48,718 bases of DNA from a virus (lineage: Duplodnaviria; Heunggongvirae; Uroviricota; Caudoviricetes). Positions 31,078 to 32,073 of the stretch are shown here, in pieces. Numbering within the stretch: position 1 is the stretch's first letter; every line of letters begins with the position of its first letter. Made by a program: the position numbers and the translations under genes. The notes beneath the pieces are model-generated. The model did no database searches. It saw only the letters and a program-made list of their open reading frames with translations, and was not told the DNA's origin. Location of the stretch: IMG/VR virus record IMGVR_UViG_2597489870_000007; one strand, given 5' to 3'.

Positions 31078-32073
31078 TTACGCCAGCACGCCAATTGCCA
31101 GCGCACGATCGATAAAACGAAATATCAGCTCCAGCTGGGAGCCATACTTCTCTTCAAATGCCACGGTATCCGCATGCAGCTCGTCGTGATGCTTTCTGCA
31201 CAAAGGCAACACAAAAAGGTCATGCGCTTTTGTTCCCATTCCCCCCTGACCGTGACCTATCAGGTGGTGGGGATCATCAGCGGGCTTTCCACAACATGCA
31301 CACGGCTGTGTCTTAACCCAGCGCGTGTACTTTTCATTAACCCAGCGGCGACGTTTTGGGCGTAACATAAAAGACTCCGGCGACTCCGGATCCACTTTCA
31401 GCGCCAGCACCTTTTTCGCCTTATCCTGGATGATGCTGGTAGCAGGAACCGAAGGCACAAGGTCACTTTCCCGGGAGACAGACGGCACAACAGGCTTCGG
31501 TAATCTCAGTGCCTTACGGGCTGCACTTTCCGGTAAGGCATCCGCCAGGTCATTACGAATCAGCCACCAGCACAGTTCCGGCATTGTCACAACGTGACTG
31601 TCATCAAAACCGAGATCCCGACGCACAACAGACAACACCCAGCGGGCACAGTTATCCGTTGCCATTGATTCCAGCCGTTCCGTGAACTGATCGCGCAGCT
31701 GGTTATCGCAGTGCCAGCACAGACGGATTGCGCCCGGAGCGTGTCGCATTGTGGTCATGTTCTCGCTGTGCCAGTCGGAATGAGGCCACTGGCAGCCTTT
31801 TTCACGAAGTAACCAGCTTTCAAGACATTCCACGCCACCAGCACGACGGATCACTGCCTCATTGCGGAACACGGCCCGAACGGCAGGATCATCCGCCAGC
31901 GGTTGTGATGCCGCCGGAACTGCACCACTGGCGAAAGATGAATAACGTTCCGGCTCAGGCTCCAGCAGGACACGCCCCTGCATAAACAGGGGCATCAACT
32001 CTGAACCTGGCCTGAACAATACGATCCCCATACGCGGGGCAATTTCAGGGGTCAGTAGTGCTCTCACGGTCAC
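31078..32073 (-). CDS. Phage protein with DUF968-like architecture and HNH-like C-terminus
   Basis: 331-aa ORF whose C-terminus reads CACCGKPADDPHHLIGHGQGGMGTKAHDLFVLPLCRKHHDELH (Cys pair plus His-rich HNH-like motif); sits in the nin region upstream of Q. Confidence 0.55.
   Translation of the reverse strand: MTVRALLTPEIAPRMGIVLFRPGSELMPLFMQGRVLLEPEPERYSSFASGAVPAASQPLADDPAVRAVFRNEAVIRRAGGVECLESWLLREKGCQWPHSDWHSENMTTMRHAPGAIRLCWHCDNQLRDQFTERLESMATDNCARWVLSVVRRDLGFDDSHVVTMPELCWWLIRNDLADALPESAARKALRLPKPVVPSVSRESDLVPSVPATSIIQDKAKKVLALKVDPESPESFMLRPKRRRWVNEKYTRWVKTQPCACCGKPADDPHHLIGHGQGGMGTKAHDLFVLPLCRKHHDELHADTVAFEEKYGSQLELIFRFIDRALAIGVLA

Follow-up and report, generated by a model that had tools for sequence, protein, structure and literature searches.

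The window, i.e., the whole stretch of 48,718 nucleotides that was analysed, carries on its minus strand an intact gene of the DUF968/YdfU family, placed between a KilA-N gene split by an insertion sequence and a Q antiterminator gene (Table 1). Positions 30000-35000 showed 100% identity to the genome of E. coli ETEC H10407 (NC_017633.1, 5086104-5091104, reverse strand), and the host replicon appears to be a lambdoid (mEp460/SfV/cdtI-like) prophage of this strain. In RefSeq, the minus-strand genes begin with replication/regulatory genes, an N6-adenine methyltransferase, a small LexA-family protein, RusA, and a KilA-N 5' fragment. They continue with an IS3-family transposase, the KilA-N 3' part, the DUF968 protein, and an antitermination protein, and end with a hypothetical protein, a DNA methyltransferase, lysis genes, and terminase. 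The region is the delayed-early "nin" region of a lambdoid prophage, and the DUF968 gene would be transcribed with the delayed-early operon, i.e., RusA, KilA-N, DUF968, and Q.

Table 1. Features of the DUF968 locus, in window coordinates and in order of transcription
Feature	Position	Strand	Details	Basis
RusA Holliday-junction resolvase gene	34240..34629	minus	recurrent neighbor of DUF968 genes	Pfam, RefSeq, distant loci
KilA-N 5' remnant	34148..34220	minus	ATG at 34220; about 25 native codons, then the frame enters IS2	ORFs, allele comparison
IS2 (IS3 family)	32817..34147	minus	1331 bp; orfA and orfB codirectional with the phage operon	ORFs, RefSeq, repeats
CGATC 5-bp direct repeats flanking IS2	32812-32816 and 34148-34152		target duplication	confirmed against the intact allele
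KilA-N 3' remnant	32075..32816	minus	TGA stop 32075-32077, 7 nt upstream of the DUF968 GTG 32067	ORFs, Pfam, RefSeq
DUF968/YdfU-family CDS	31078..32067	minus	329 aa and TAA stop (31078-31080)	ORF list, Pfam, PHROG, RefSeq
N-terminal domain, residues 1-195	31483..32067	minus	specific to the enterobacterial YdfU/PdcB type	AF2, domain searches
Putative second zinc site and beta-beta-alpha element	31696..31794	minus	C92, H100, C117, C120 (CQWPHSDWH...LCWHCDN)	conservation, AF2
Predicted His-Me (HNH) nuclease domain, residues 228-329	31081..31386	minus		Pfam, BFVD Foldseek, hhalign
Core motif of the HNH domain	31174..31302	minus	C256-x2-C259-x7-H267-H268-x14-D283-x6-C290-x2-H293-H294-x3-H298	conservation table, translation, AF2
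Q antiterminator gene	30312..31064	minus	PF03589, E=8.8e-53; DnaJ-type CxxCxGxG zinc finger	Pfam, PHROG, RefSeq

The preliminary description placed the open reading frame at 31078-32073. This frame exists (331 aa, minus strand, from an alternative in-frame GTG at 32073), but the second GTG, at 32067, is the likelier start and gives 329 residues. GAGG was found 5 nt 5' of this GTG, directly past the KilA-N TGA (32075-32077). Most homologs begin with MRALL or a near variant, and the PHROG 96 match opens at residue 3 of the 331-residue form; the start at 32067 is therefore better supported. RefSeq also starts the gene at GTG 32067 (WP_024185670.1) and already labels the product as a DUF968 domain-containing protein. 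Because the start lies 7 nt past the KilA-N stop, both genes may be translationally coupled. On the other side, the gene was said to lie beside Q, and a Q of the PF03589 type indeed begins 13 nt downstream of the DUF968 stop. The 13 nt between the TAA and the Q ATG (31064), GTGGAGAACGAGC, contain GGAG.

The disruption of the upstream KilA-N gene by IS2 had also been proposed, and it was borne out by the 1331-bp element, the CGATC duplication, and an IS2-free allele in strain O177:H21. In that strain, the prophage segment is otherwise 99.9% identical, with an intact 810-bp KilA-N gene and a single CGATC. The length of the element equals the reference length of IS2, 1331 bp, and the 5-bp duplication and the orfA/orfB pair with its frameshift agree with IS2 as well. 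RefSeq reports an IS3-family transposase with programmed frameshift, and the matching records read "IS3-like element IS2 family transposase". In the KilA-N 3' part, no ATG, GTG, or TTG start occurs before 32716, and RefSeq lets it begin with an ATA (32821) that belongs to the end of IS2.

In a scan of positions 30000-34700, no outward sigma-70-like promoter was found at the IS2 right end and no intrinsic terminator was predicted between IS2 and the DUF968 gene; promoter and terminator matches were at chance level overall. Altered expression of the DUF968 gene after the break in KilA-N had been suggested, and polarity on DUF968 and Q is the likelier effect of IS2. Strong constitutive read-through from IS2 would express Q and hence the lysis genes, so it should be counter-selected. 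Apart from H10407 and the duplicate record of this strain, no match had an insertion at this site, so the event is recent. The DUF968 protein is identical in the IS2-free O177:H21 prophage (same WP accession). IS2 is of more consequence to the prophage, whose viability it may affect by polarity on Q, than to the DUF968 protein itself.

Family assignment and domain structure

In the Pfam search, the protein matched DUF968 (PF06147) with E=5.6e-81 and 271.1 bits against a gathering cut-off of 27.8, over residues 162-328 and profile positions 2-171 of 171. PHROG 96, annotated as "HNH endonuclease", matched over the full length (6e-177). Both matches are far beyond chance, and the earlier assignment as a DUF968-like protein holds. 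HNHc_6 (PF16784) reached 26.9 bits with the whole protein and 30.0 bits with the domain against a cut-off of 26.6, covering profile positions 123-184 of 204 only. RecA_dep_nuc (PF16786) stayed below its gathering threshold, i.e., 18.2 bits for the domain against 26.9. The C-terminal domain alone (102 aa) matched DUF968 at 5.1e-57. When 27 domain sequences of the family were scanned, DUF968 was hit in 27, HNHc_6 in 21, RecA_dep_nuc in 13, YbcO in four, and HNH in three; the YbcO matches were weak (4/27 relatives, best E=0.01). The protein itself gave no Pfam match to YbcO/DUF1364 (PF07102), and neither the protein nor its domain matched lambda NinG/Rap (PF05766). NCBIfam and PADLOC searches returned zero matches, and phmmer with the whole protein against PDB gave chance-level matches only.

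An HNH-like zinc-binding C-terminus had been described, and the CxxC and His-rich motif is present as CACCGKPADDPHHLIGHGQGGMGTKAHDLFVLPLCRKHHDELH at 31174-31302; zinc binding and the HNH character are predicted from it. Conservation was tabulated across 36 diverse homologs with 25-86% identity. C256 is invariant and D283 is found in 36/36, H268 in 33/36, and H294 and H298 each in 32/36. H267, H268, H294, and H298 are kept together in 32 of the 36 homologs; the remaining four have other residues at 267, 294, and 298, and three of them have lost H268 too. Seven homologs are without C259, and of these all seven miss C/H293 and five miss C290. This block-wise loss suggests that a structural zinc set (C256/C259/C290/H293) is separable from a catalytic set (H267/H268, D283, H294, H298). 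The protein in the window retains every residue of both sets.

The AF2 model, built on an alignment of 36 diverse homologs, had a mean pLDDT of 90.2, with about 95 in the C-terminal domain. The predicted strands 265-268 and 286-289 form a hairpin that is followed by helix 291-299, i.e., the beta-beta-alpha-metal topology, and the His-Me finger fold is predicted both by this model and by the BFVD matches. In the Foldseek search against the predicted viral structures of BFVD, the last ~90 residues matched small stand-alone phage DUF968, HNH, and Ref-like proteins with E down to 8e-8, TMt of 0.71-0.77, and rmsd of 0.9-2.7 A (best TMt 0.77 with rmsd 0.9 A). Against PDB, the whole model gave a best E of 0.13 and none below 0.1; the top six and most of the best-ranked matches were HNH enzymes, and the weak matches included McrA, Cap5, Cas5-HNH, IscB, and ScoMcrA. 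A PDB profile search with the C-terminal domain placed YbcO (3g27) at the top (E=0.087) and McrA second, and in these alignments H268, D283, C290, H294, and H298 each met their counterparts in YbcO and McrA.

The candidate catalytic His, H268, lies at the end of strand 1 and aligns with H32 of YbcO, the HH of McrA, and H157 of phage phiNM1 Gp16. The candidate metal-binding H294 and H298 lie on the helix as H-x3-H, aligned with H185 and H189 of Gp16. The middle Asn of H-N-H was not found, and D283 fills the equivalent loop, aligning with the Asp of YbcO and Gp16 and with the "TDN" of McrA. Replacement of this Asn is common within the His-Me finger/HNH superfamily, so the missing Asn does not exclude membership. 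The preliminary description would have given up the nuclease reading if no His-Asn-His triad could be aligned. Both His were found, but the Asn is replaced by the invariant D283. Taken literally, that test would wrongly reject the protein, because D283 is family-wide and common to YbcO and Gp16. Judged from the alignments, Asp at 283 is a family-wide feature and does not indicate inactivation.

The N-terminal domain was modeled alone with pLDDT 92.7 and pTM 0.79. PHROG 11007 spans residues 3-135 of the 331-residue form. No Pfam family was found in 29 members scanned and no PDB relative in the profile search, and Foldseek against PDB gave nothing at E<2, with ScoMcrA and Cap5 recurring at E>2. 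The ligands of the putative second zinc site are strongly conserved (C92 in 36/36, [C/H]100 in 33/36, C117 in 36/36, and [C/H]120 in 36/36), and AF2 predicted strands 104-109 and 112-117 and helix 118-124 here. The order of elements, i.e., two ligands, a hairpin, and two ligands at the helix start, is the same as in the HNH domain. A colinear hhalign alignment of both domains paired C92 with C259 and C117 with C290 (P=0.015, Prob 2.9%). Residue 109, at the position of the catalytic His, is His in this protein and is unconserved among homologs. A degenerate second finger, or an internal duplication, is thus a lead only, since the hhalign result is insignificant and residue 109 is unconserved. 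Alternative N-domain architectures were also looked for; all of the 12 short representatives inspected were frameshifted or truncated copies, and no new fusions were seen.

Distribution and genomic slot

DNA resembling the gene was found in 3724 of 5426 complete E. coli genomes, with at least 80% coverage in 2363 and up to six copies per genome. Active phages carry such DNA as well; the 73 phage records with it include mEp460, cdtI, Ayreon, and many Stx2a/2c/2k phages, and the usual labels there are DUF968, YdfU family, and HNH endonuclease. A single protein cluster at 90% identity holds 9520 member sequences.

The gene order of mEp460, i.e., RusA, KilA-N-type regulator, DUF968, Q, methyltransferase, and lysis, is the order in the window. 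Proteins of this type were said to recur in lambdoid nin regions, and the slot is shared with mEp460 and with distant relatives. At 38% identity, the order is RusA, DUF968, and a Bro-N antirepressor, and at 36% identity it is O/P replication genes, DUF968, RusA, and a Q of the PF06530 type, with lysis genes farther downstream. A relative of the zinc-less type (33%) is followed by a small ORF, Q (PF03589), lysis genes, and a Nu1/A terminase. The most distant locus (25%) has a lambda-P-like gene, CsrA, DUF968, RusA, a lysozyme-like gene, and Q; an additional small HNH gene (PF01844) stands directly 5' of the terminase genes of this phage. The conserved place of DUF968 is thus after the replication genes and before Q, as a rule next to RusA, and the Q genes belong to two different families. 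The same pattern was reported for His-Me finger group 7 by Jablonska et al. (PMC5714182).

Proposed function and alternatives

From the gene, its family, the intact motif, the predicted fold, homology, and synteny, we infer nuclease activity, its substrate, and a possible RecA dependence. The reading that we prefer, at a probability of roughly 60%, is that the intact YdfU-type gene encodes a two-domain protein whose complete HNH module nicks or cuts recombination or replication intermediates, maybe with RecA. C256, C259, C290, and H293 would hold a structural zinc in a putative treble-clef arrangement. The general base would be H268, with which strand 1 ends; H267, H294, and H298 (HH...H-x3-H) would hold the catalytic metal, and the invariant D283 would stand in for the classical Asn. 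The family-specific N-domain (1-195), with its second Cys/His zinc site, would supply recognition of DNA or of a partner. The nuclease suggested earlier from the C-terminus stands as a prediction, as H268, C290/H293, H294, and H298 align with functional residues of Gp16 and the four catalytic His are complete in 32/36 relatives.

The DNA that is nicked or cut would be that of phage or host, and cutting may be RecA-cooperative by analogy with P1 Ref and phiNM1 Gp16, the sole characterised HNH-core relatives. To our knowledge, these two are the only known RecA-dependent phage nucleases. The N-domains of Gp16 and Ref, i.e., NinB-like and a disordered basic tail, differ from the N-domain described here, so the choice of partner may differ. 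Neither the lambda nin genes nor P1 pdcB are needed to form plaques (PMC10695390), and any role of the DUF968 protein would therefore be accessory.

A narrower proposal, which is tentative and rather doubtful, is that YdfU-type proteins are RecA-assisted nickases whose N-domain is a degenerate second His-Me/treble-clef finger serving as pseudo-dimer partner or targeting module. If true, most E. coli strains would set free a RecA-guided nuclease when their prophages are induced, with possible effects on phage recombination and on SOS-linked killing, i.e., phage-antibiotic synergy as for Ref.

The protein could instead serve in host takeover, attacking or blocking the host chromosome early in lytic growth and not phage recombination intermediates. 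The HNH core is homologous to that of Gp16, which suppresses host growth and replication (PMC12817073), and in lysogens P1 Ref adds to the lethality of ciprofloxacin (PMC4713147). However, the gene is closely and repeatedly linked to RusA and to the nin recombination slot, which points to DNA-junction processing, the protein had no PADLOC/defense match, and its N-domain is unrelated to that of Gp16, and we regard a takeover role as unlikely. It is quite unlikely that the protein is a non-catalytic DNA-binding or regulatory protein near the early-to-late switch, with a zinc-finger scaffold and dispensable histidines. The full catalytic set is present in the protein and in 32/36 relatives, and the histidines persist in a subclade that has lost the zinc set, which speaks for selection on catalysis. 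On the other side, four of the 36 relatives, including the P1/P7 PdcB lineage to which the histidine-less relatives belong, are without H267/H294/H298 yet keep the zinc sites and the N-domain. Their persistence suggests that a non-catalytic role is viable for the DUF968 scaffold. The PdcB lineage lies directly upstream of the late activator Lpa, as the present gene does of Q, and the annotation "transcriptional regulator" is attached to some members of the family (PMC5714182).

The conserved slot argues against two further readings, both of which were judged unlikely. Phage HNH genes are often homing endonucleases, and a free-standing selfish gene that spreads by cutting phage genomes without a copy would agree with the weak BFVD match "HNH homing endonuclease" (rank 13, prob 0.38) and with the mosaic gene, of which only the 3' third is matched by K-12 ydfU DNA. 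It is distinctly improbable, as the position in the nin operon is stable across relatives of 25-99% identity, the core is homologous to Ref/Gp16 and not of the I-HmuI type, and the large conserved N-domain does not resemble the modules with which homing enzymes bind DNA. A terminase-associated role in cos cleavage or packaging, as for HK97 gp74, is very unlikely. HNH proteins are widespread as packaging components (cited in PMC12817073), but the gene is not adjacent to terminase, the terminase of the prophage is lambda-type, Nu1/A-like (nohD and large subunit), and the phage with a distant DUF968 homolog has its own PF01844 HNH gene directly upstream of terminase.

Comparison with known systems

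The gene, its family, and its His-Me finger placement were already known (RefSeq, Pfam, PHROGs, PMC5714182), and the earlier interpretation is largely right and not new. DUF968 was placed in His-Me finger group 7 in 2017 together with YbcO, with YdfU named (Jablonska et al., PMC5714182), and a nuclease prediction for the sister family YbcO dates from 2016 (PMC4999995). The present analysis adds, at residue level, the split between a zinc set and a catalytic set, an explicit link of homology from the core to Gp16 and Ref, the unannotated N-domain with a second Cys/His site, and P1 PdcB as an inactive-looking relative. For the window, the gene is a standard annotated part of a common prophage module and has little consequence. 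The family, however, occurs extremely widely in prophages of E. coli, Shigella, and Salmonella, Stx2 phages among them, and merits experiment. In this family, the catalytic core shares homology with that of the only two RecA-dependent nucleases known from phages, the N-domain is without an assigned family, and the question of substrate and partner is tractable.

The description of such proteins as functionally undefined is right for the YdfU type itself, as literature searches on DUF968, YdfU, and PdcB turned up no experimental paper on it and no functional study of such a protein. It does not hold for the wider group, which was classed in 2017 (PMC5714182) and in which two HNH-core relatives are characterised, i.e., P1 Ref (PMC4330346, PMC3973344) and phiNM1 Gp16 (PMC12817073).

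YdfU of the K-12 Qin prophage and other DUF968 proteins belong to the same Pfam family and have the same two-domain architecture. The YdfU-length representatives P0128 and P0134 showed 50-51% identity to the protein over the full length. Like the present gene, the genes of this family lie upstream of Q with RusA and antirepressor neighbors (as in PMC5714182). The sequences are mosaic, and the DNA match to K-12 ydfU is confined to nt 679-996, i.e., the HNH domain in the 3' third. In the nin region of lambda, NinG/Rap (PF05766), a nuclease of the His-Me finger type, is encoded a few genes before Q (PMC5714182, PMC4118853). It is without a sequence match to the protein and is its positional, and probably functional, analog. 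YbcO of DLP12/phage 82 (DUF1364, PF07102; PDB 3g27) is likewise a nin-region protein beside RusA (PMC5714182, PMC4118853). Its H32, PPD Asp, and CSACH-x3-D align with H268, D283, and C290..H294..H298, but it is a single domain of 96 aa and the match is weak (E=0.087).

P1 PdcB aligned over the full length with 26% identity (Pfam DUF968 E=3.6e-50). It keeps both zinc sites and the N-domain but is without H267/H268, H294, and H298, and its gene sits between the doc/pdcA genes and lpa. PdcB is non-essential and has no assigned function (PMC10695390, PMC10067587). P1 Ref (RecA_dep_nuc, PF16786; PDB 3PLW) shares the core PC-x2-C...HH...PLC-x-x-HH...H with the protein and aligned with the C-domain profile at hhalign Prob 75.8% and E=2.3e-5 over 58 columns. 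Ref is a phage accessory recombination nuclease, characterised as RecA-dependent (PMC4330346, PMC3973344). Unlike the protein described here, it has a disordered basic N-terminus (PMC4330346) and another genomic context.

Gp16 of Staphylococcus phage phiNM1 (HNHc_6, PF16784) has an HNH core homologous to the C-domain profile (hhalign Prob 95.7%, E=1e-8), and it passes both Pfam cut-offs, i.e., HNHc_6 at 4.9e-117 and DUF968 at 29.1 bits. In the alignment, H268 corresponds to H157, C290/H293 to C181/H184, H294 to H185, and H298 to H189. The spacing of Gp16, C145-x2-C148-x8-H157...C181-x2-H184-H185-x3-H189, is nearly that of the protein, C256-x2-C259-x8-H268...C290-x2-H293-H294-x3-H298. Gp16 differs in its length of 223 aa, in a single His in place of HH, and in its NinB/Orf-like N-domain, a domain of the Gram-positive DUF968/HNHc_6 proteins that the present N-domain is without (PMC4118853, PMC12817073). 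Its gene is one of the early genes of phiNM1, which has a RusA gene five genes further on. Gp16 is a nickase in which the CxxC/CxxH zinc-finger residues are essential and H185/H189 contribute (2026, PMC12817073). RecA binds Gp16 and enhances its cleavage, and in the host Gp16 inhibits both growth and replication and causes the nucleoid to condense (PMC12817073).

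Possible domain exchange and zinc site loss in DUF968

At the DNA level (nucleotide matches H49-H51), only nt 679-996 of the DUF968 gene, i.e., window positions 31078-31395, were matched by ydfU of the K-12 Qin prophage, with 87% identity. This common stretch is exactly the HNH domain. Because the mosaic joint and the domain boundary coincide in this comparison, the sequences suggest that the N-terminal and nuclease parts of DUF968 genes were exchanged as modules.

In the alignment of diverse DUF968 homologues (A2), the structural zinc ligands were lost jointly in one subclade (P0173, P0182, P0199, P0238, P0222, P0237, and P0260), i.e., C259 and C/H293, and mostly C290 as well. 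The subclade retains D283 and all four catalytic histidines. Therefore, the zinc site seems to be dispensable for the fold in this lineage.

Neighboring genes and other HNH proteins

In the Q antiterminator (PF03589), a zinc-finger repeat of the DnaJ type, CxxCxGxG, was detected (PF00684, E=1.8e-8), and Q also matched the anti-TRAP model weakly. Two DNA methyltransferase genes were found in the prophage. The 3' KilA-N CDS (WP_044519660.1) starts in RefSeq at ATA, of which the first bases lie inside the last 5 bp of IS2 (window 32817-32821). This start is probably an annotation artefact from homology-guided extension; the earliest in-frame ATG/GTG/TTG is at 32716. The fragment showed a weak match to PDC-S22, a PADLOC candidate defence model (E=1.4e-5), which was restricted to the KilA-N core, residues 16-52.

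One phage encoding a distant DUF968 homologue (loci L007/L008) has a separate small canonical HNH gene (PF01844/HNH_5), directly upstream of its Terminase_4 and TerL genes. Therefore, the nin-region and packaging HNH proteins coexist.

Coordinates of the genes discussed
Feature	Position	Remarks
N6_N4_Mtase, 350 aa	28652-29704	between Q and lysis cassette; PADLOC MTase_II, 3.3e-152
Q antiterminator	30312-31064	
KilA-N 3' fragment	32075-32716	
Small LexA-family protein	34626-34952	
N6-adenine methyltransferase	34949-35635	upstream of small LexA-family gene and RusA
Small HNH gene	L007/L008:9106-9456	
Phage P1 pdcB	L012:2501-3544	

PdcB of phages P1 and P7

PdcB of P1/P7 was recognized as homologous to DUF968/YdfU along its full length (Pfam E=3.6e-50; 26% identity). 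In the papers found, PdcB is listed as non-essential and of unknown function (PMC10695390, PMC10067587). PdcB has kept the N-domain as well as the two Cys/His zinc sites, but H267/H268, H294, and H298 are missing. The late promoter activator gene, lpa, was placed directly downstream of pdcB in every case, i.e., at L012 and at the further loci L006, L010, and L011.
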